A stretch of DNA of 64,000 nucleotides from Bacteroidota bacterium (lineage in GTDB: Bacteria; Bacteroidota; Bacteroidia; JABDFU01). Position 1 is the first letter of the stretch. Each line of letters starts with the position of its first letter. The position numbers and the translations under genes were made by a program. Below are positions 2,503-33,340 of this stretch, piece by piece. The stretch covers positions 413 to 64,412 of the forward strand of contig JABDFG010000008.1 in assembly GCA_013286655.1 (NCBI GenBank), in the 5' to 3' direction. A model generated the notes under the pieces. It had not been told where the DNA came from. It saw nothing but the letters and a program-made list of their open reading frames with translations, and did not search any database.

Positions 2503-3672
2503 TTAAAAGACTTCGCATAAGTGAAAGAAAAGACCGTGCGAACCTTCCATGCCGAATCCATAGTCGATCCCAAAATTAGCCCTGGAAAGGGTATTTACTT
2601 TTATGCGAATTCCGGTTCCGACGCCGGGTAAAATGGTTTCAAACTTATTTCCAGGATAATCCGATACGGATTGTGCATTGGCGAATACCACTCCTCCCAA
2701 AAGACCATTCCGGGTAATGCCAAAACGGTATTCTGATTCCAGGTATAACAGATTAGCGCCTCTTAACCTCCCCTGAATATACTCCCGTGCCATGTTGGAG
2801 TAGGTGTCCCAGCCGGTACTCGGCAAGTCGAAGTAAGGGGCTTTTCCTCCAAAACTAAACCAGTTGTAGCTCCACAATGCCAATATATTATTTGAGTGGG
2901 GGGAAAGTTGAATGTACTTTCTAAAATCCAGTAGCAGGGACTGCCAGTTTTGGTCACTCCCTAAAAGCGTCAAATTACTTCTATAAGAAATACTTGCATA
3001 ATATCCTTTCATAGGATTATTTATGTTTTTCCTGGCATCAAACAGTAAATGTATCAGCAAACCTGATGAAACGGTTTTTGTGGCATCGTTATTATATTGT
3101 TGAAAATCCCCGATGCCCCCCTGATCCGCGATACCAAAATGATAATCAAGATTGTAGCCCATTCCTGCGTAAAAGTCAGATTGTATATGTTTCAATACTT
3201 CCTGGTAGATCCGGATATAGGAATACGACACTGCATCGGCATTGCTTAAAGAGGAATGTCCTCCCAGACCATAGGTAAAAGTGGGGTACTTATAATAGCG
3301 CAAATCGCCCAGCCAATTGTATTTGTTTTCTTTGGACCAGATGTTGGAAACAACAGGTATAATAACCTGGTGGTTGAAAATGGAATACTCCGAATAGGTC
3401 GTGATGGAAGATAAATACGTGTCTGTATTTTTACCCAGGTAAAAAGATGCATTGACAGAAGCAACGGCCGATACGCTGGTCACTAGTTTATAGCCCACTC
3501 CCGGTAAAATAGCATAAAACACCTTGCCAGGTTTTAATTTCAGACTATCCGGCTGTAGCGGAATTTTTTTATTGAATAATTCCTGAACAACATCTACAAT
3601 ATCTTTTTGCTGGATTTGAGCTACTACGGTTGAACCGAACAGAATAAAGAAACAAAAACCAGGTATCCTCAT
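2503..3672 (-). CDS. Omp85/BamA-like (surface antigen D15 family) outer-membrane beta-barrel protein
   Basis: Signal peptide after the internal Met (MRIPGFCFFILFGSTVVAQ). Alternating beta-strand pattern and a C-terminal aromatic residue (..HLCEVF). Confidence 0.55.
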   Translation of the reverse strand: MRIPGFCFFILFGSTVVAQIQQKDIVDVVQELFNKKIPLQPDSLKLKPGKVFYAILPGVGYKLVTSVSAVASVNASFYLGKNTDTYLSSITTYSEYSIFNHQVIIPVVSNIWSKENKYNWLGDLRYYKYPTFTYGLGGHSSLSNADAVSYSYIRIYQEVLKHIQSDFYAGMGYNLDYHFGIADQGGIGDFQQYNNDATKTVSSGLLIHLLFDARKNINNPMKGYYASISYRSNLTLLGSDQNWQSLLLDFRKYIQLSPHSNNILALWSYNWFSFGGKAPYFDLPSTGWDTYSNMAREYIQGRLRGANLLYLESEYRFGITRNGLLGGVVFANAQSVSDYPGNKFETILPGVGTGIRIKVNTLSRANFGIDYGFGMEGSHGLFFHLCEVF

Positions 3673-4586: not shown

Positions 4587-4612
4587 AAAGGGGCTCCCGG
4601 GCCCCTTTTTTG
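4587..4612 (+). terminator. rho-independent terminator
   Basis: GC stem AAAGGGGC / GCCCCTTT with a short loop, followed by a T-run, directly after the stop of 3922..4566. Confidence 0.7.
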
Positions 4613-4670
4613 TTTCTTATCTTTACTATAATGCGAAGCATTCATAAACACAGTTAAATTAACGATACAG

Positions 4671-5162
4671 ATGAAAAAGCTTTACCTTATACGTCACGCC
4701 AAGTCTGATTGGACTTACGAAGGGCTTCCGGACATAGACCGTCCTTTAAATGAAAGAGGTTATCGTGACGCCCATTACATGAGCAAGCATTTGTTTAGCA
4801 AAAAACACCAGCCGGATGGCATTATTACAAGTCCGGCCATCAGGGCCATCAATACAGCCCTGATATTTTCCCGTAACCTGGATTTCTCTGAAAATAAGAT
4901 CCAGATTAATCCGGCTTTGTATCATGGCACGATAGAAGCCTTTATAGCCCAGCTTGGCGGAATACACGAGGATTTGAAGAGTGTTTTTGTGTTCGCGCAT
5001 AATCCCACGATCACAAAGGTGCTGAACATATTGACCGACAGCAAAGTGGAGGAGATGCCGACCTGTTCGATTGCCTGCATCGAATACAAAGAAAACTCCT
5101 GGAAGGCGACTCAGTCGGCTTCTATGCTTTGGTTCGATTTTCCTAAAAATCATCCGCAATAG
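4671..5162 (+). CDS. sixA: histidine phosphatase family protein (SixA-like)
   Basis: N-terminal LIRHAKS (RHG-type catalytic motif). About 160 aa, and sits directly upstream of ppk-ppx. Confidence 0.6.
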   Translation: MKKLYLIRHAKSDWTYEGLPDIDRPLNERGYRDAHYMSKHLFSKKHQPDGIITSPAIRAINTALIFSRNLDFSENKIQINPALYHGTIEAFIAQLGGIHEDLKSVFVFAHNPTITKVLNILTDSKVEEMPTCSIACIEYKENSWKATQSASMLWFDFPKNHPQ

Positions 5163-5167
5163 ACTAG

Positions 5168-5210
5168 TGTTAAGTTATTGTTAAGTGTCTTTCTGTTCAT
5201 AGACTGTCAC
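5168..5210 (+). promoter_or_regulatory. two pairs of 11-bp-phased direct repeats (Pho-box-like) upstream of ppk
   Basis: TGTTAAGT-tat-TGTTAAGT (5168-5186) and CTGTTCA-taga-CTGTCAC (5193-5210). A TAATTTCG -7-like box at 5223-5230 follows, then the ATG at 5237. Confidence 0.3.
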
Positions 5211-5236
5211 AGGAATGATGCGTAATTTCGAAAAGT

Positions 5237-7309
5237 ATGGCTTCCAAAAACTATGAACAACTCAACCGCGAATTAAGCTGGCTGTCCTTTAATGAACGTG
5301 TTTTACAAGAGGCCGAGGATAAAACCGTCCCACTTATTGAACGCGTGAAGTTCATGGGAATATTCTCCAGTAACCGGGATGAATTTTTCCGTGTAAGAGT
5401 AGCCACTGTTAAACGGATGGTCAAGCTGGGACGCAAGGCGAAAGAAATACTTGGTGAGGATCCTGAAATACTGCTGGGGAAAATCCAAAAAATGGTTATC
5501 AACCAGGCTAACAAGTTCGAGGGCATTTATGAAGAACTTTTGCATGACCTGGGTAAGAAGAATATTTATATTCTGAATGAACGGATGTTAAATGCGGAAC
5601 ATGTAAAACATGTCCGACAGTATTTTCACGACGAGGTTATGCCGGCCTTAGTACCCATTATGCTGGATGCTTTTGTCCCTTTTCCGTACCTCAGGGATAA
5701 ATCCGTTTATTTCTTAATTAAGCTTAATCGCTCCGGAAAAAAACCAAAATATTCGCTTATTGAAATTCCTTCTGAAGTCTTACCGCGTTTTGTAGTATTG
5801 CCCAAGCAGGGGGATAAAAAATACATCATCCTGTTAGATGATGTTATCCGTTATTGTCTCGATGTAGTATATGCGATCTTCGATCACGAATCCATCGAAG
5901 CTTACGCTGTCAAATTGACCAGGGACGCGGAGCTGGACATTGATAATGACGTTACCAAAACCATTGTTGAAAAGATATCAAAAAGCCTCAAGAAGCGGAA
6001 AAAAGGAGCACCGGTCCGGTTGACGTATGATAATGACATGCCGATTGACATGCTCGACTTTTTGATGAAAAGAATAGTTGCCATCAAAACGGAAAATCTT
6101 ATACCCGGAGGAAGGTATCACAACTTCAAGGACTTTATTAATTTCCCGAATGTCGGCGGGCCGGAATTGAAGTTCCAGAATCCGATGCAGCTCGACCATG
6201 AAATTTTCTCCGGAAAAAAAAGTTTTCTGAAGGTTATCCGTGAAAAGGATATTCTTCTTTTTTATCCGTATCAGAGTTTTTCCCATATCATTGATGTTAT
6301 CCGTGAAGCGGCCATTGATCCACGCGTGGAAAGTATTAAAATGACTTTGTACCGTGCAGCAAAACATTCCCGTGTGGTGAATGCACTTATCAATGCCATG
6401 AAAAACGGAAAAAAAGTTACGCTCGTTGTGGAGATACAGGCCCGTTTCGATGAAGAGGCTAATCTGCACTGGGCGGATAAATTAATGGAAGAGGGCGCAC
6501 AAGTGATCTATGGTGTCCCCGGTCTTAAAGTGCACTCTAAATTATTTTTGATCAGCCGGCGCGAAAATGGAAAACTGGTGAATTATGCCCATGTAGGGAC
6601 GGGAAATTTTAACGAACAAACTTCTAAACTTTATTCCGACTGTAGTCTCCTTACCTGTGATAAACGGATCACCGGAGAGGTGGCTAAACTTTTTATTTTC
6701 TATGCTAATAATCTCAAACCGGGAACCTATAAGCATCTCCTGGTGGCTCCCTACTTTATGCGTAAAAAATTCAATAATTTTATTAACAAGGAAATTGCAA
6801 ATGCGAAGGCCGGTAAGCCTGCATCTATAAAACTAAAGCTGAACAATCTGGTTGACAGGGAAATTATTAAAAAGCTATATGAAGCAAGCGAGGCAGGGGT
6901 TAAGATAAAGCTGATCATACGTGGGATCTGTTGCCTGGTTACGGGGGAGTCCTACAGCAAGAACATAGAAGCCATCAGCATTGTTGATAAGTACCTGGAG
7001 CATTCCCGGGTGTTTATATTTTGCAATGGGGGTAATGAAAAATACTTTTTATCTTCGGCGGACTGGATGGGAAGGAATTTTGATAATCGTTCGGAGGTGG
7101 GTGTGCCTATTTATGACAAGGCTTTACAAAAGGAAATCAAAACATTCTTCGACATACAATGGAGTGATCATTGCAAGGCAAGGATTATTAATAAGAAGCA
7201 GGATAATCCATACCGTGTGACAGGCCATTCCGCTAGTCAGAAAACAAAAGTTCGGGCGCAGGATGAAATTTATAAATGGCTCAAACAAAAAAAAGCACAA
7301 TTAAAATAA
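5237..7309 (+). CDS. ppk: polyphosphate kinase 1
   Basis: 690 aa. N-terminal NRELSWLSFNERVL, an autophosphorylation-region histidine context, and two PLD-like C-terminal domains (HSKLFLI, HSRVFIF). Confidence 0.95.
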   Translation: MASKNYEQLNRELSWLSFNERVLQEAEDKTVPLIERVKFMGIFSSNRDEFFRVRVATVKRMVKLGRKAKEILGEDPEILLGKIQKMVINQANKFEGIYEELLHDLGKKNIYILNERMLNAEHVKHVRQYFHDEVMPALVPIMLDAFVPFPYLRDKSVYFLIKLNRSGKKPKYSLIEIPSEVLPRFVVLPKQGDKKYIILLDDVIRYCLDVVYAIFDHESIEAYAVKLTRDAELDIDNDVTKTIVEKISKSLKKRKKGAPVRLTYDNDMPIDMLDFLMKRIVAIKTENLIPGGRYHNFKDFINFPNVGGPELKFQNPMQLDHEIFSGKKSFLKVIREKDILLFYPYQSFSHIIDVIREAAIDPRVESIKMTLYRAAKHSRVVNALINAMKNGKKVTLVVEIQARFDEEANLHWADKLMEEGAQVIYGVPGLKVHSKLFLISRRENGKLVNYAHVGTGNFNEQTSKLYSDCSLLTCDKRITGEVAKLFIFYANNLKPGTYKHLLVAPYFMRKKFNNFINKEIANAKAGKPASIKLKLNNLVDREIIKKLYEASEAGVKIKLIIRGICCLVTGESYSKNIEAISIVDKYLEHSRVFIFCNGGNEKYFLSSADWMGRNFDNRSEVGVPIYDKALQKEIKTFFDIQWSDHCKARIINKKQDNPYRVTGHSASQKTKVRAQDEIYKWLKQKKAQLK

Positions 7310-28206: not shown

Positions 28207-28227
28207 CTGAAACACTTACTGTGTTTG

Positions 28228-28301
28228 CTCCTCGGACTGGGCTCGAACCAGTGACCCCATGATTAACAGTCATGTGCTCTAACCAGCTGAGCTACCAAGG
28301 A
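28228..28301 (-). tRNA. tRNA-Asn (anticodon GTT)
   Basis: Manual cloverleaf. Acceptor TCCTTGG/CCGAGGA, D arm GCTC..GAGC, anticodon stem CATGA/TCATG with loop CTGTTAA, T arm ACTGG-TTCGAGC-CCAGT, discriminator G. No encoded CCA. Confidence 0.9.
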
Positions 28302-28478
28302 ATTTCCCTAAAAAGGAGTGCAATATTAGCATTTGTGAGCTAATTATACAATATAATTCTCACTTAATTTAGGGGAAGGGGGATATCCATAATAAACCTA
28401 AAATAGAGTTTTTGAACTCATAACTTGCACTTTACATGCACCAAATTTTCAATGTTTTAGCCATAACCAGACAAAATT

Positions 28479-28680
28479 ATGGCAACTTTAAAACTTACTT
28501 TGGATTGCAGGAAAAGCTATAATGATGGTAGACATCCTGTAGTTTTCAGACTTACTTCTGACCAAAAAAGCACTTCCATTTACACTGAAACCAGATTATT
28601 TCTCTTGAATGGGATAAAAAGAAGGGAAAAGTTACCAAAACACATCCTAATTGTAAAATACTGAACCTCAAACTCATAAA
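28479..28680 (+). pseudogene. tyrosine recombinase (phage integrase) N-terminal Arm-domain fragment, frameshifted and truncated
   Basis: MATLKLTLDCRKSYNDGRHPVVFRLTSDQKSTSIYT, then in the -1 frame ..EWDKKKGKVTKTHPNCKILNLKLIK. This pattern is typical of Bacteroidota integrase N-termini. The catalytic domain is absent. Confidence 0.6.
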
Positions 28681-28770
28681 GAGGCAAGAGTATTGGATAT
28701 TGAGGTACTAGATCATGTAATTCTAACAGCTGATGGCTATTATTCCTTTGCTGATGAAGGGATGATATAA
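28681..28770 (+). pseudogene. RadC/JAB-domain protein C-terminal remnant
   Basis: Frame 1 reads EARVLDIEVLDHVILTADGYYSFADEGMI-stop, matching the conserved RadC C-terminus (..LDH.I....SF...G..). There is no upstream body. Confidence 0.5.
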
Positions 28771-28800
28771 AAAAAGCAGGGTAATTAGTCCTGCTCTTTT
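28769..28800. terminator. bidirectional hairpin terminator
   Basis: Stem AGCAGG / CCTGCT flanked by an A-run and a T-run. It serves the minus-strand peptide gene 28814..28966. Confidence 0.6.
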
Positions 28801-28813
28801 ATAGATTTAAAAT

Positions 28814-28966
28814 TTAATAACAGTGTGTACTGCAACCAGCACTATTAGTAGGAGCTCCTATATTAGATAAATTTCCACCCTTCAGACTACTCATTTGCTC
28901 ATTATTTAATTTTGCTACAACTTCTTTTTTTAAACCCAGCTTTTTTTCAAATTTGATCTTTTTCAT
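28814..28966 (-). CDS. double-glycine-leader precursor peptide 1 (lanthipeptide/bacteriocin-like), 50 aa
   Basis: MKKIKFEKKLGLKKEVVAKLNNEQMSSLKGG | NLSNIGAPTNSAGCSTHCY. The start was chosen by alignment with the two paralogs. The longer ORF-track start at 29026 would swallow the conserved 5' motif. Confidence 0.75.
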   Translation of the reverse strand: MKKIKFEKKLGLKKEVVAKLNNEQMSSLKGGNLSNIGAPTNSAGCSTHCY

Positions 28967-28990
28967 GTCAATTGGTTTTAAATTAGTTTT

Positions 28991-29009
28991 CTTCAGAATG
29001 CTGTTGCCC
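28991..29009 (-). promoter_or_regulatory. conserved 5'-leader motif GGGCAACAGCATTCTGAAG (copy 1)
   Basis: Preceded by TAAATTTG (TAnnTTTG -7 box). The same motif lies upstream of all three peptide genes. Confidence 0.4.
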
Positions 29010-29461
29010 AAATTTATGATGTCCAACGGCTATAATTTTTTTTTGTTACATTTTTATATTAGATCCCATAAATAAATATCTAAATGACTGATTAACAATC
29101 AAATAAATTTAAAACATTAACAATACCTGAGAGCCAAAATCCTTTGTTTAAAATAAAACTTACTGAAATAAAATAAGGATTTGAATAGTCAGGAGGTCAT
29201 TTTTTCCAAAATCCAATGATATAATTTCAGAAATTATCTTTTGGGACAGATAATATATATAGCTAAATATGGAAAAGTCTGCTGTCCAGTTTAATTATTG
29301 GGCAGCTACTTTCCATTCTTCTATATCATCTACCAAATGTGCAATATCATACCATTTGAAACCAATATTGTTGATCCATTCACCTATGAATTTCCTGTTT
29401 TGGCTTATATGACTAGAAAACTTTTGAAATCATTGGATGTTGTTTACGTCGGGATGTTCCT

Positions 29462-29629
29462 TTAACATCCACCACTTGTACCACAAGTGCACGTGTCACA
29501 TTGTTTTAAACGACTACTCACATACAGTATTCCTCCATTAACAACATTCATTTCTGTATTGTTTAGGTTTGCTACCGTTTCTTTCTTCAAACGCAGTTTC
29601 TTTTCAAATTTTACTTTTTTCATTTTCAT
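29462..29629 (-). CDS. double-glycine-leader precursor peptide 2, 55 aa (not in ORF track)
   Basis: Manual translation: MKMKKVKFEKKLRLKKETVANLNNTEMNVVNGG | ILYVSSRLKQCDTCTCGTSGGC-stop. The leader is paralogous to peptides 1 and 3. Confidence 0.7.
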   Translation of the reverse strand: MKMKKVKFEKKLRLKKETVANLNNTEMNVVNGGILYVSSRLKQCDTCTCGTSGGC

Positions 29630-29648
29630 TTTAATAATTTCATTTATT

Positions 29649-29667
29649 CTTCAGTTTGCTGTTGCCC
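29649..29667 (-). promoter_or_regulatory. conserved 5'-leader motif GGGCAACAGCAAACTGAAG (copy 2)
   Basis: Same position relative to the ATG as copies 1 and 3. Confidence 0.4.
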
Positions 29668-29944
29668 AATTGTTTTTAATATAAAGCTATCACTGCAACG
29701 AGCAGATGTCAAATCAAAATATGTTCATTATGAATCGTCCAAATATTATATTCAAATAGGTTTTTTTCTTTTTAAGGTAAATAATACATAAATACAGCCA
29801 TTTTTCAGCAAAAAAATTTCACAAATCGGTTCTATTATTAATTGCCCAAAAATTCATCTTGGGTTTTACATAAGAATCTGGAATGGTAATGCGGGGCTAG
29901 GAATACACATTTAAACCACAAAGCTCACAAGCTAACTTGTACAG

Positions 29945-30043
29945 ATGAAAGCTTTTTGTGCTGCAATCTTTTTAGCTGTTCTTTCTGTAACTGCTTTTGC
30001 ACAGAGTGATTATTACTTCATTTATTCAGGCAAAATGCTTTAG
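29945..30043 (+). pseudogene. truncated secreted-protein gene remnant (signal peptide only)
   Basis: MKAFCAAIFLAVLSVTAFAQSDYYFIYSGKML-stop. Protein-like text continues in another frame (GHDSVVSGTTQGKVFISAGVGSNTW..). Confidence 0.3.
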
Positions 30044-30254
30044 GTCATGATTCTGTAGTTTCCGGAACAACCCAAGGGAAAGTGTTTATTAGTGCCGGTG
30101 TTGGAAGTAATACATGGAGAGATTGGAATAGGCATATGTTATAGAAGGAGGTGTGTGTTTTGTCTTCTCCTGCAAAAAGTAACTGCATTGCGGGTAAGAG
30201 CCCTGAGAAATTAGGGCACTTATTTACAAACACTGAAAACAACTTAATTGATCA

Positions 30255-30291
30255 AAAAGCAGCAAAAGACCGGGTTTATGGCCTGGTCTTT
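30255..30291 (-). terminator. rho-independent terminator of peptide gene 3
   Basis: On the minus strand, stem AAAGACC / GGTCTTT is followed by TTTTGCTGCTTTTT. Confidence 0.55.
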
Positions 30292-30339
30292 CGTTTACTT
30301 CATTGGTGAGTTAAGAGTGATAATGCCAATTTTACACTT

Positions 30340-30546
30340 TTAGGAACAACTTACGTTTGTGAGGGTATGATGGCAATTCTGCCCGTATACCGTATGGCAG
30401 TTAAGAGATGGGCTGGTGTTGTTAGAGCAGCCACCGACCGTTTGTAAAGTATCTCCTCCTTTAAGGCTGTTCAATTCGCTATTGTTTAATGGTGATACGG
30501 TTTCTTTTTTTAAACTAAGCTTTTTTTCAAATTTCAACGTTTTCAT
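30340..30546 (-). CDS. double-glycine-leader precursor peptide 3, 68 aa
   Basis: MKTLKFEKKLSLKKETVSPLNNSELNSLKGG | DTLQTVGGCSNNTSPSLNCHTVYGQNCHHTLTNVSCS. Confidence 0.75.
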   Translation of the reverse strand: MKTLKFEKKLSLKKETVSPLNNSELNSLKGGDTLQTVGGCSNNTSPSLNCHTVYGQNCHHTLTNVSCS

Positions 30547-30569
30547 TTTTATAGTTTTTAAGTTAGTTC

Positions 30570-30588
30570 CTTCAGTCTGCTGTCGCCC
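30570..30588 (-). promoter_or_regulatory. conserved 5'-leader motif GGGCGACAGCAGACTGAAG (copy 3)
   Basis: Same position relative to the ATG as copies 1 and 2. Confidence 0.4.
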
Positions 30589-30868
30589 ATTTACTTAGTA
30601 TGTTTCTGAATATAATTACTTCAAAAATAAAGTAAAGTTTTTTGTATGGCGATTAAACATATACTAACGTGTTAAACTTTCAACTTCCATTTTATTTGTC
30701 AATTATATCATAATTATATCTATTAATCGGATATTTTTGCATAAAATCCTGATATTAATGTTAGTATTCCAGTATATTATTTAATTGTCTTTGGGGTGAT
30801 AAGTTAATGAAAAACATACTGGATTTAAGTAAAAATCCGGAATGGCAGGAGATACTTTACGGGGCTAC

Positions 30869-33340
30869 TTACTCCTGATAATAAACTCTTTTCACCCTCC
30901 TGGATATGGCTGTTAGTATTTCATAGGGAATCGTTTCGCAGTCTTTTGCAAATTGTGTAATAGGGTATTCTTTTCCAAACACGATTACTTCATCGCCTTC
31001 TTTGGCAGAAAGGGTGCTGATATCGATCATGCACATATCCATGCAGACGTTTCCAACGATGGGCGCCGCTATTCCGTTTATCAATAACCGGCCTTTGCCG
31101 TTGCTGAGTTTACGGCTCAACCCGTCAGCATAACCTATTGGAACAGTAGCGATGCACATCGCTTTTTTTGCGATGTAGCTACGGTTATAGCCAACACTTT
31201 CGCCAGCCTGAATCGTTTTAATCTGAGAGATCGTTGTTTTAAGCGTGTTCGCAAATTCGAGGTGCTTCTGTTCCTTTTCGTCCCAGCCAATTCCGTAGAG
31301 TCCGATTCCCAAACGGACCATATCAAACTGGGCTTGTGAAAAACGGCTGATGCCGGCTGAGTTGAGAAGATGGCTTAGTACAGGATAGCCGAGCTCAGAA
31401 ATGATTATTTCGCGCATACGATCAAAGCGGGCAATTTGGTTCTGTGTAAAATCATCCTGACTGACATCATCTGCGGATGACAAGTGGGAAAAGACCGAAC
31501 GCACCTGGATCGTTTTGTTCTCTTTTAAAAATACAATGAGTTGCTCGAGTTCCTCTTCTTCAAAGCCCAAGCGGTGCATGCCGGTTTCCAGCTTCAGATG
31601 TATGGGTATTGATCTGCCGGAACCAGGAGGTAAACGGCGCCTGACGGCTTCGTTGAACAGGCGGATGATGCGCATTGAGAAAATTTCCGGCTCCAGGCCG
31701 TGTTCGATCATCGCGTCATAGCTTTGTTCTTCGGGATTCATGACCATAATAGGTAAGGTAATTCCTGCTTTGCGAAGTTCAACACCTTCGTCTCCGTAAG
31801 CTACGGCCAGGTAATCGACATGCTGGAACTGAAGAATATTGGCGATTTCGTAGCTCCCGCTTCCATAAGAGGACGCTTTCACCATTGCCATTACTTTTGT
31901 TGTGGGTTTTAGCCTGGAGCGGAAGTAATTCAGGTTATGGACGACTGCATTCAGATTGATCTCCAGGACGGTTTCATGCGACTTTTGCTGCAACTGCCGG
32001 GCGATTTGTTCAAAACCGAAGGTTCTGGCTCCCTTGATCAGGATCGCTTCATTCTGGAAACCCTGGCCTCCGAAAACCTGTAAAAATTGTTCGGTACTTT
32101 CGAAAAAATGTTTGTCGATTGTGAAATAGTGAGATTGCCGTTCGATGGATTTTCCGATTCCGATGAGCCGGTGGATACCCTTTGTTTCCAGGAGTTGAGC
32201 AACTTCCTTGTATAGGATGGTCTCTTCCTTTCCGCTTTGTAGAATATCGGAGAGAATGATGGTCTTCTTAATGTGTTGCTTTTGCTGGTTTAAAAAATCA
32301 AGTGCAATCGTCAGCGAGCCCAGGTCTGAATTATAACTGTCGTTAATGATCAGACAGTTGTTAATACCTTCCTTCATTTCGAGCCGCATCGCAACCGGAA
32401 TCAGGTTTAACATGCGTGTCCGGATAAGATCATTTTCATAGCCCAGCCGAAGCAGGACGATCCAGCAATGGATGGCATTCTCGATGGAACCCTCGTCTGT
32501 GAAGGGTATCGTAATCGTTGAACGAGTGCCCGATTGGCTGGTACTTTCCAGTAAGGTATCTTTTTCGTTTTTCTTTATCCGGATAAAATAATCTACGTTC
32601 GGGTTGATTTTGCTCCAGCGAACGAATTCATGACAAGTTACAGAGCCTGTGTTATTAGCTATGTCCGGGTAATCGGCACAGTAAATGAGGGTGGTAGCCT
32701 GGTTGAAGAGTTTTAACTTTTCGAGCGTTTTGTGTGAATGATTTTGAAAATTTTCGTCATGAGCCTCCCGGAGATTAGTGATCAGACCAATAGTAGGTTG
32801 AATGATGGCTGCGAGCTTTCCCATTTCGCCGGGTTTAGAGATACCGGCTTCAAATATTCCAAGCTCATTTTCCGGCCGGAGCTGCCACACGGAAAGTGGC
32901 ACTCCAACCTGGGAATTATAACTTTTTGGGCTGCGCACGATGTTTTTATCCTCCCGCAGGAGTTGAAATAGCCATTCCTTGACGACCGTTTTCCCATTGC
33001 TGCCGGTTATGCCAATAACGGGAATTGTAAACTGTCTGCGGTGATAGGCCGCTAATTGCTGCAGGGCACTAATGGTATCAGCAACTTTTATAAAACACGC
33101 ATCCGGATAGTTCGCAATTTGTTCAGGATTTTGTTCAACGACAAAGTTACGGACTCCCTTTTCGTAAAGTTCTGCAATAAATTTATGTCCGTCCTGCCGT
33201 TCTCCTTTAATGGCGAAAAATAACGCGTTGCCGGCTGATGAAGCGCTGCGGCTATCAATAATAATGGAAAGAATGGTAGTATCACTTTTTCCGGTAACGG
33301 AGCCTTGTATTATTTCGGCTATTTGTCTGGAGGTATACAT
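30869..33340 (-). CDS. murF: bifunctional UDP-N-acetylmuramoyl-tripeptide--D-alanyl-D-alanine ligase / alanine racemase
   Basis: N-terminal Mur ligase (GITGSNGKT). C-terminal alanine racemase (AMVKASSYGSG PLP-lysine motif, ..GYADG..). 823 aa. Confidence 0.9.
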   Translation of the reverse strand: MYTSRQIAEIIQGSVTGKSDTTILSIIIDSRSASSAGNALFFAIKGERQDGHKFIAELYEKGVRNFVVEQNPEQIANYPDACFIKVADTISALQQLAAYHRRQFTIPVIGITGSNGKTVVKEWLFQLLREDKNIVRSPKSYNSQVGVPLSVWQLRPENELGIFEAGISKPGEMGKLAAIIQPTIGLITNLREAHDENFQNHSHKTLEKLKLFNQATTLIYCADYPDIANNTGSVTCHEFVRWSKINPNVDYFIRIKKNEKDTLLESTSQSGTRSTITIPFTDEGSIENAIHCWIVLLRLGYENDLIRTRMLNLIPVAMRLEMKEGINNCLIINDSYNSDLGSLTIALDFLNQQKQHIKKTIILSDILQSGKEETILYKEVAQLLETKGIHRLIGIGKSIERQSHYFTIDKHFFESTEQFLQVFGGQGFQNEAILIKGARTFGFEQIARQLQQKSHETVLEINLNAVVHNLNYFRSRLKPTTKVMAMVKASSYGSGSYEIANILQFQHVDYLAVAYGDEGVELRKAGITLPIMVMNPEEQSYDAMIEHGLEPEIFSMRIIRLFNEAVRRRLPPGSGRSIPIHLKLETGMHRLGFEEEELEQLIVFLKENKTIQVRSVFSHLSSADDVSQDDFTQNQIARFDRMREIIISELGYPVLSHLLNSAGISRFSQAQFDMVRLGIGLYGIGWDEKEQKHLEFANTLKTTISQIKTIQAGESVGYNRSYIAKKAMCIATVPIGYADGLSRKLSNGKGRLLINGIAAPIVGNVCMDMCMIDISTLSAKEGDEVIVFGKEYPITQFAKDCETIPYEILTAISRRVKRVYYQE

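Follow-up and report, generated by a model that had tools for sequence, protein, structure and literature searches.

Introduction

Class I lanthipeptide precursors (LanAs) of Bacteroidetes carry a leader with an LxLxKx5L motif that ends in GG, and C39 proteases are found in their clusters (Walker et al., 2020). Characterised members of this precursor family (NF038153 / PF28317) are the pinensins of Chitinophaga pinensis as well as Ped15.1 and Ped15.2 of Pedobacter lusitanus NL19. Another arrangement is known from the prochlorosins of marine picocyanobacteria (ProcA/ProcM), where numerous ProcA precursors, alike in their leader but with hypervariable cores, are spread over the genome at a distance from a single synthetase (Walker et al., 2020). 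Furthermore, the model TIGR04149 (GG_sam_targ_CFB) describes short Bacteroidota peptides that combine a GG leader with a Cys-rich tail, occur as multiple paralogues and are radical-SAM-modified RiPPs.

Here, we study three small minus-strand genes (P1, P2 and P3) from a 64-kb window of a Bacteroidota genome, i.e., the whole stretch of DNA that was analysed. Like NF038153 / PF28317 precursors, they start with the pattern MKK.KFEKKL.LKKE..., show LxLxKx5L and a Gly-Gly leader end, have variable cores rich in Ser, Thr and Cys, and have paralogues adjacent to LanC. Unlike in canonical NF038153 clusters, they are more than 28 kb away from any biosynthetic gene, and the loci read for the nearest LanC clade have neither LanB nor an exporter next to LanC. 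Each of the three genes is also preceded by a 20-nt 5' box, which the canonical clusters L120 and L004 do not have. With the prochlorosins, P1-P3 share the scattered arrangement, the conserved leader and the hypervariable cores. However, prochlorosins are class II products with LanM enzymes and Nif11-type leaders, whereas P1-P3 belong with a class I-type LanC and a Bacteroidota leader; their family counts at least 9 paralogues on two contigs, compared to dozens of prochlorosins. Peptide length, GG leader, Cys-rich tail and multiple paralogues also agree with the TIGR04149 systems, from which P1-P3 differ by a much higher lanthipeptide-leader score and by a LanC neighbour, with no radical-SAM partner in the loci examined.

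Results

Three intact genes with a class I lanthipeptide leader

The original prediction placed three open reading frames on the minus strand, and all of them are intact, with coordinates and translations exactly as given there. P1 (28814..28966) encodes a 50-aa precursor with leader MKKIKFEKKLGLKKEVVAKLNNEQMSSLKGG and core NLSNIGAPTNSAGCSTHCY, based on its ORF and translation as well as its NF038153 match. An alternative TTG start at 29026, used in one public annotation (P0001), would extend it to 70 aa; the alignment of the family favours the ATG at 28966. P2 (29462..29629) encodes 55 aa with leader MKKVKFEKKLRLKKETVANLNNTEMNVVNGG and core ILYVSSRLKQCDTCTCGTSGGC. Since the family consensus is MKKVKFEKKL, its true start is likely the second ATG at 29623 rather than the one at 29629, which leaves 53 aa. 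P3 (30340..30546) encodes a 68-aa precursor with leader MKTLKFEKKLSLKKETVSPLNNSELNSLKGG and core DTLQTVGGCSNNTSPSLNCHTVYGQNCHHTLTNVSCS, based on its ORF and NF038153 match, and was recovered by gene calling on the Logan contig L001, too.

The leader common to P1-P3 is not a product of chance: the back-translated KFEKKL pattern shows 3 matches where 0.31 are expected. When comparing six paralogous leaders, we count 147/110/232 differences at the first, second and third codon position (52/34/108 for the first 17 codons). This excess at the third position indicates coding constraint on the leader.

A search against leader profiles, as called for by the original prediction, is positive for all three peptides. 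The class I lanthipeptide leader model NF038153 (lant_leader_L1a, cut-off 22 bits) scores 41.6 bits for P1, 45.2 for P2 and 39.7 for P3, with E-values from 4e-10 to 7e-12, and homologues of P1-P3 are annotated with Pfam PF28317 (Lant_leader_dom, precomputed). The proposed resemblance to Bacteroidota class I lanthipeptide leaders is thereby supported. The LxLxKx5L segments read KLGLKKEVVAKL, KLRLKKETVANL and KLSLKKETVSPL, each followed by the GG at leader position 30-31, and leader residues 1-22 are nearly invariant. The cores contain the family's combination of Cys with Ser/Thr, i.e., 2 Cys and 6 Ser/Thr in P1, 4 and 6 in P2, and 5 and 13 in P3, with many Ser/Thr N-terminal to Cys. Judged by these sequence features, P1-P3 are precursors of the already catalogued Bacteroidota class I lanthipeptide family (NF038153 / PF28317). 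The proposed architecture, with a GG leader that is conserved and cores that are hypervariable, holds as well, with the restriction that the cores are not unrelated throughout the family: that of P1 shares NLS...C..HCY with the paralogue P0003.

We also observe matches to TIGR04149 (cut-off 25 bits), which count against a lanthipeptide reading. P1 scores 25.0 bits, i.e., at the cut-off, and P3 scores 28.4, where neither match stops at the Gly-Gly site but both extend into the Cys-containing cores. P2 reaches only 14.2 bits, such that the model does not hold for all three peptides, and NF038153 exceeds it by 11-31 bits for each of them.

Genomic setting

No LanB, LanC, LanM, radical-SAM or C39-peptidase ABC exporter gene is found in the whole 64-kb window, which widens the enzyme-free region of ~10 kb that had been reported before. 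The other genes of the window are all housekeeping in appearance. The region from 28.3 to 30.9 kb has a GC content of 32% compared to 41% window-wide and is mostly non-coding with unique spacers. This AT-rich, gene-poor island adjoins a tRNA-Asn. A putative integrase remnant at 28479-28664 was dropped, as Pfam gave no match even at E<=1.

In agreement with the claim that at least two of the genes have terminators, a hairpin followed by a T-run is located on the minus strand at 28775..28795, 19 nt after the P1 stop codon, and another one with 12 bp at 30265..30291 after the P3 stop codon. No such terminator hairpin was recognised after P2.

Paralogues next to an intact LanC

The window proteins MurF-Alr, PPK and UvrC were matched only on contigs of run SRR8422325. 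Beyond this run, the best UvrC relatives reach no more than 82% identity and belong to Bacteroidia/Bacteroidota MAGs. A 3-kb contig of the same run (SRR8422325_2113, L008 in the following) has an intact 409-aa LanC that is surrounded by four paralogous precursors and retains the catalytic motifs SHG, WCYG and CHG. This LanC corresponds to P0024 of the public assembly, where it is found on a 12,262-bp contig together with a second LanC (P0025, 59% identity to P0024) and the precursors P0003, P0005 and P0017. P0003 shares 69% identity with P1 and is its nearest relative. Because of the shared run and the shared features, the window and the LanC contig likely originate from one genome, where SRR8422325 could be a mixed sample. 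One suggestion had been that P1-P3 are orphan substrates whose cluster is distant. The LanC amid paralogues on a contig of the same run, as well as P0003, support this idea, to the extent that the contigs share one genome, which is likely rather than proven.

A LanB dehydratase (PF04738 + PF14028) is found neither in the window nor in L008, L063 and L004. L063, from the LanC clade nearest to this genome (58-59% identity), shows LanA-LanC without LanB or exporter in 16 kb, and the same holds for the more distant LanC locus L004 within 10 kb on each side. A relative with 42% LanC identity (L120/L121) has a canonical cluster of LanA, LanC, LanB (PF04738+PF14028), C39-ABC and HlyD. Radical-SAM genes are absent from the window, L008, L063, L004, L120 and L122. 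The gene that repeatedly adjoins this leader family is LanC, not a radical-SAM gene. A LanC clade whose loci, as far as read, come without LanB and exporter may constitute a second, smaller novelty.

A conserved 20-nt box upstream of the precursors

In Bacteroidota, transcription and translation signals are unusual and poorly mapped. The original prediction assigned each gene its own leader region. Such a region exists in each case; what marks it is a sharply conserved 20-nt box that had not been singled out. The 20-mer TGGGCRACAGCANNCTGAAG is located upstream of P1-P3, about 19-25 nt before the ATG and on the same (minus) strand. In detail, the P1 box (28991..29010, TGGGCAACAGCATTCTGAAG) ends 24 nt before the ATG, the P2 box (29649..29668, TGGGCAACAGCAAACTGAAG) ends 19 nt before the ATG at 29629 or 25 nt before that at 29623, and the P3 box (30570..30589, TGGGCGACAGCAGACTGAAG) ends 23 nt before the ATG. 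A pattern search in the window yields 3 matches with 0.05 expected. The similarity among the paralogs begins at the box.

The box is also present upstream of three of the four L008 precursors, and L008 A1 shows an 11-nt deletion within it. Another block, TTGCAGTGATAGCTTT, is located at 29683..29698 (minus strand), 14 nt before the P2 box, and was found by alignment and blastn to be common to P2 and the precursors A1 and A3 of the LanC contig L008. The blastn similarity of P2 and L008 reaches 29718. The block may be a promoter element.

Two other organisms also have the box in front of GG-leader peptide genes. In at least three lineages, entire families of RiPP precursors with a GG leader follow it. 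In many Bacteroidota, it is furthermore found in the 5' leader of unrelated genes for secreted proteins, i.e., an ECF-sigma-linked DUF4331/HupE/TonB-receptor operon, DUF6799 and CHRD proteins (type IX secretion). All copies share the same geometry: they are on the sense strand and end 19-32 nt before the start codon. Most of them have an ECF-type promoter (AAC...CGT) upstream of the box. No antisense copy was found in the window, L001-L003, L008 or L063, and nhmmer revealed no degenerate extra copies in ~120 loci. The literature searched contains no paper on the box sequence and gave no matches for DUF4331 or DUF6799.

We considered several known types of elements for the box and rejected them. 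An upstream ORF does not fit, as the base before TGG can be any of A/C/G/T and the frame to the ATG differs among copies; the P2 box, which is in another frame than the P1 box and has an in-frame stop codon, is non-coding. By inspection, the GG...GC spacing is 6 nt and not the 11 nt of a sigma-54 promoter, and the conserved halves are just ~6 nt apart, which does not fit a -35/-10 promoter. Regarding a structured RNA or riboswitch, none of the 4227 Rfam covariance models overlaps the box, whether in the window or in 18 further loci that carry it, nor does any at E<=10 in a 2.1-kb region, and RNAfold predicts a weak 3-bp CAG/CUG hairpin without consistent pairing in 33 instances. A scan of viral sequences for a phage or mobile-element signal gave only 5 matches, each within a long open frame, which we interpret as coding or chance.

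Target sites of dCas12f-sigmaE systems (PMC13472631) resemble the box, as both are contiguous stretches of ~14-20 nt in front of unrelated genes, have no -35/-10 architecture and are found in a phylum with many ECF sigma factors. According to Hoffmann et al. (Nature 2026, PMC13472631), transcripts of these systems begin 45-48 bp downstream of the TAM. Here, the ATG is located 19-32 nt downstream of the 20-mer and about 40-53 nt from its first base, such that a start of this type would fall into or beyond the start codon. Unlike in dCas12f-sigmaE targets, the two central bases of the box vary among copies within one genome and ECF-type promoters are located upstream of it. Moreover, the box sequence is the same across orders, while the guides differ between systems.

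Tentatively, and at slightly less than even odds, we propose that the 20-22-nt box TGGGCRACAGCANNCTGAAG(RA) is an undescribed, Bacteroidota-wide cis-regulatory element that is predicted to be unstructured. If so, a conserved trans-acting factor (a small RNA or an RNA- or DNA-binding protein) would bind to it and tie the expression of lanthipeptide precursors, both clustered and orphan, to an envelope or metal-stress regulon.

Discussion

With a probability of roughly 65%, we consider P1-P3 to be functional, separately transcribed LanA genes, i.e., dispersed copies of the LanC-adjacent precursors whose enzymes are encoded elsewhere in the genome. The leaders belong to the class I family and are under coding constraint, the window is free of the enzymes, and box-bearing paralogues are found beside an intact LanC in the same run. 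From these sequence data we infer dehydration, cyclisation, cleavage, export and co-regulation of the products as follows. The conserved leader of ~31 aa would be bound by the enzymes encoded elsewhere. A LanB-type dehydratase would convert Ser/Thr of the core to dehydro-residues, to which LanC (P0024 and/or P0025) would add the core Cys to form thioether rings. A C39-peptidase ABC exporter would then cut after Gly-Gly and export the product. By analogy to the prochlorosins, one enzyme set could serve many hypervariable cores, and expression of clustered and orphan copies is probably coordinated via the common 5' box.

We also note that neither a LanB nor a C39 exporter has been located, and that GG-leader peptides without any Cys (SRSNPPGF, PKVVVTGVH) follow the same box in L063 (2294-2398) and L110, and hence are not lanthipeptides; both observations count against this explanation. 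The Cys-free peptides fit a scenario in which GG-leader peptides are only cleaved and exported by a C39 ABC exporter and form at most disulfides, acting as class-II-bacteriocin-like toxins or signals. LanC would then act on the neighbouring copies only, or would not act on this set of peptides. The missing LanB near the LanCs of this clade (L008, L063) as well as the even or near-even number of core Cys (2, 4, 5) are in line with such unmodified peptides. On the other hand, the lanthipeptide-leader model outscores every other by far, the nearest paralogues directly adjoin LanC, and the cores are Ser/Thr-rich with Ser/Thr N-terminal to Cys. Beyond that, the conservation of leader residues 1-22 exceeds what GG cleavage needs. 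We thus rate peptides that are merely cleaved and exported as unlikely.

It is very unlikely that P1-P3 are decaying, non-functional duplicates. While the low-GC, mostly non-coding island with its unique spacers, the deletion in the L008 A1 box and the lack of a recognisable P2 terminator could be read this way, none of the three ORFs is disrupted and each retains a GG site and a core with Cys, the third-position excess speaks for selection on the leader, and the box is perfectly retained in 3/3 copies despite flanks that have diverged beyond alignment. Least probable is maturation by a radical-SAM/SPASM enzyme from another site of the genome, as the TIGR04149 matches of P1 and P3 that suggest it are opposed by the failing P2, the higher NF038153 scores of every peptide, and the loci examined, where LanC recurs and no radical-SAM gene was seen.

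Taken as functional LanA genes, P1-P3 alone would extend a catalogued lanthipeptide family by a small number of new cores. Moreover, they suggest that class I precursors of Bacteroidota can be located far from their enzymes. Genome mining that is confined to a few genes around LanC misses such dispersed precursor copies; the search by Walker et al. (2020), for instance, spanned seven genes on either side. The more useful lead is the box. Searching for it offers an easy sequence-based way to retrieve every dispersed precursor in genomes of this kind, and it hints at a conserved, uncharacterised control element that may link RiPP precursors to an ECF-sigma-controlled operon of secreted proteins.

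Precursor genes and leader family

The three minus-strand ORFs claimed in the original prediction were found and translated where they had been placed, i.e., P1 at 28814-28966, P2 at 29462-29629 and P3 at 30340-30546. A degenerate DNA pattern for KFEKKL matches three times in the 64 kb, compared to 0.31 expected matches. Based on the family alignment, we start P1 at its ATG (28966); the public gene call P0001 (70 aa) uses an alternative TTG at 29026. For P2, the second ATG (29623) is most likely the start. A hairpin followed by a T-run lies 3' of P1 and of P3, in line with the claim of terminators behind at least two genes, while none was found after P2.

We also compared codon positions across the leaders of six paralogues, i.e., P1-P3 and three encoded on L008, a 3-kb Logan contig of run SRR8422325. 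Nucleotide differences per codon position are 147/110/232 for whole leaders and 52/34/108 for the first 17 codons. This excess at third positions shows selection on the reading frame.

The leaders of P1, P2 and P3 reach 41.6, 45.2 and 39.7 bits for NF038153 (lant_leader_L1a, "class I lanthipeptide"), which has a curated cut-off of 22 bits. The suggested profile search is thus positive for all three peptides, and their likeness to Bacteroidota class I lanthipeptide leaders is borne out. Scores for TIGR04149 (rSAM-modified RiPP, cut-off 25) are much weaker (25.0, 14.2 and 28.4 bits). The Pfam version searched has no matching model, and homologues in the database carry the precomputed domain PF28317 Lant_leader_dom. 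The leaders conform to the LxLxKx5L...GG motif reported for Bacteroidetes class I LanA precursors (Walker et al. 2020), a group with pinensins and Ped15.1/15.2 as characterised members. The family is already known from curated models and characterised members, and the earlier interpretation of P1-P3 is essentially right.

Genomic surroundings and a distant LanC locus

P1-P3 are located in an AT-rich island of about 2.6 kb (28300-30870; 32% GC vs 41% for the window) that is almost gene-free apart from the three peptide genes and adjoins a minus-strand tRNA-Asn gene (28227-28301). The spacers between the genes are unique and without match in related loci. A 32-aa plus-strand ORF (29945-30043) resembles a signal peptide left without its protein (MKAFCAAIFLAVLSVTAFAQ...). 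The gene immediately 5' of P3, also on the minus strand (30869-33340), encodes MurF (UDP-MurNAc-pentapeptide synthetase) fused to alanine racemase, 823 aa in total. All other genes of the full 64 kb are housekeeping-like, including polyphosphate kinase, Ppx, ABC-2 transporter, Fe-SOD, PfkB kinase, chromate transporter, FAD monooxygenase, the MurF-Alr fusion, thymidine kinase, carboxyl transferase, PurD, TonB receptor, MgtE, MutS, SpoU, UvrC, Mfd, cytochrome oxidase subunits, PrfB and fumarase. The absence of LanB, LanC, LanM, radical-SAM and C39-ABC genes, claimed for the neighbourhood, extends to the whole window.

Exact copies of window proteins occur on SRR8422325 contigs only. Among these, L008 encodes a LanC (1199-2428; 409 aa; SHG, WCYG and CHG motifs kept) flanked by four more precursors, i.e., A1 (= P0017), A2 (89 aa), A3 (51 aa) and A4. 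The ends of L008 (1-31 and 2971-3001) overlap and A4 spans the join; the repeated leaders have probably misled the assembly here. In a public assembly, this LanC (P0024) is on a 12,262-bp contig that also carries a second LanC (P0025, 59% identity) and the precursors P0003, P0005 and P0017. P0003 is the closest relative of P1 (69% identity, common core frame NLS...C..HCY). The 70,572-bp contig that contains the window shares its source signature (NCBI, JGI/IMG and Logan, singleton clusters) with the LanC contig, and we infer that both stem from one genome. The paralogues around the LanC on L008 and P0003 on the LanC contig support the view of P1-P3 as orphan substrates of a distant cluster. 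Prochlorosins are a known precedent for precursors scattered through a genome in this way.

At a LanC relative with 42% identity (L120), we find a canonical cluster of LytTR regulator, LanA, LanC, LanB, C39-ABC exporter, HlyD and S41 peptidase; a C39 protease is usual in Bacteroidetes class I LanA clusters (Walker et al. 2020). Neither a LanB dehydratase nor a C39 exporter is present in the 3 kb of L008 or in 16 kb of L063, a locus of the nearest LanC clade, where the LanC (4639-6179) stands by a LanA and otherwise has only TPR proteins as neighbours. The more distant LanA-LanA-LanC-luciferase locus L004 (10001-13002) has no LanB or exporter within 10 kb on either side. The LanC loci of this lineage are apparently LanB-less, an open lead that adds interest beyond routine.

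A conserved box upstream of precursor genes

In the alignment of the P1-P3 genes and their flanks, similarity starts abruptly at TGGGCRACAGCANNCTGAAG, a 20-nt box that ends 19-24 nt before each ATG (minus strand; 28991-29010, 29649-29668 and 30570-30589 for P1, P2 and P3) and is more conserved than the leader coding sequence. Three of the four precursors on L008 have it as well (406-425, 853-872, 2869-2888), with one copy only 17 nt past the stop codon of the precursor before it; at A1 (~195-215), an 11-nt internal deletion has shrunk it to ATTGGGCGAAGAAAA. A block TTG(C/T)A-NT-GATAGCTTT, possibly a promoter element, lies 8-14 nt 5' of the box of P2 (29683-29698, minus strand) and of two LanC-contig precursors (L008 ~826-841, ~172-187), and is missing at P1 and P3.

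In a second organism (L063, L110), the box is found 5' of the LanA beside LanC and of two Cys-free GG-leader peptides (L063 ~2249-2268 and 4590-4609; L110 ~2876-2895, minus strand). The cores of the latter, SRSNPPGF and PKVVVTGVH (L063 2294-2398, plus strand; L110 ~2738-2845, minus strand), cannot form lanthionine since they have no Cys; the peptides may serve as signals or be unmodified bacteriocins. The L063 gene is followed by a terminator and a tRNA gene, which mirrors the layout from P1 to tRNA-Asn. Soil metagenomes provide at least seven LanA genes in tandem within 2 kb (L122 154-1933, also L123 and L124), four or five of which have the box (L122 1144, 1439, 1726, 2018). Where the preceding gene is visible, boxed genes stand further apart from it, at about 140-170 nt; genes 2-4, which are packed closely, show no box or remnants only, e.g., ACTGAA. 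Boxed GG-leader precursor genes occur in three lineages, and the box is absent from canonical clusters such as L004 and L120.

The box before secreted-protein genes

Scanning 185,579 species, each represented by a single genome, with the 22-nt version TGGGCRACAGCANNCTGAAG(RA) yields 54 loci. In 26 of them (among L011-L062), an unrelated secreted-protein gene has the box on its sense strand, 19-32 nt before the ATG (13 nt in one case if the first ATG is taken). These genes encode 18 DUF4331 and six DUF6799 proteins and two CHRD proteins, the latter carrying a type IX secretion tail. Among the genomes are Chryseobacterium, Flavobacterium, Fluviicola, Chitinophaga and many Bacteroidia/Bacteroidota MAGs. 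The remaining matches fall in GC-rich, coding-looking sequence. Eight of these belong to one orthologous ORF (...LGNSTLKENDYSRFN...) of Prevotellaceae/Bacteroidaceae MAGs (L009, L016, L019, L023, L026, L041, L042, L053), which we read as a putative SusC/RagA-type receptor; we treat them as one coincidental coding-sequence match and not as a regulatory box. The others are mostly chance, non-Bacteroidota matches. A metagenome scan gives the same picture, and viral matches are in coding-like sequence only.

The DUF4331 locus is conserved (L060 690-8000; L035 700-2850, minus strand; same layout in L094, L051 and L099). It starts with an ECF sigma factor, a cupin-domain protein in anti-sigma position (ChrR-like by our reading), an S26 signal peptidase, a promoter and the box, followed by DUF4331, DUF4331 with type IX secretion tail, a TPR protein, HupE/UreJ_2, a small ORF and a TonB-dependent receptor. 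This looks like an uncharacterised ECF-controlled uptake system, possibly metal-related.

Candidate roles of the box

The DUF4331 promoter is of ECF type (AAATCC-N16-TCGTA) with the box 12-34 nt downstream, and the L063/L110 GG-peptide genes have (G)TGAAAC-N16-(C/T)GTA at about 26 nt 5' of the box. In flavobacteria, a CGT box at -10 is a recognised ECF signature and the median 5' UTR has 24 nt. Given these upstream promoters, the box is in most contexts part of the transcript, close to the 5' end. Folding predictions leave it single-stranded without structure, and it matches no Rfam family. The box is non-coding, since reading frames differ between copies and the P2 frame holds a stop codon, which also rules out an upstream ORF.

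We rank four readings by inference, not demonstration. Our preferred one, with a probability of about 0.45, is a candidate binding site for a conserved factor that acts in trans and post-transcriptionally near the ribosome-loading region, be it a small RNA, an RNA-binding protein or a processing enzyme. A DNA operator downstream of the promoter is a less likely candidate. An autonomous promoter-like element is improbable, and a box without function is the least probable. The spacing within the box does not fit a sigma-54 or -35/-10 promoter. Contiguous promoter-independent motifs have a precedent in the RNA-guided dCas12f-sigmaE targets of Bacteroidota, with transcript start 45-48 bp downstream of the TAM (PMC13472631); for the box, such a start would land at or beyond the start codon, and the two central bases differ among copies in one genome. 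We therefore reject the box as a target of this kind.

Our literature search for the box sequence, DUF4331 and DUF6799 found no paper that mentions any of the three. The shared box, with its phylum-wide place before unrelated secreted-protein genes, is what lifts P1-P3 above a routine case and provides an open lead.
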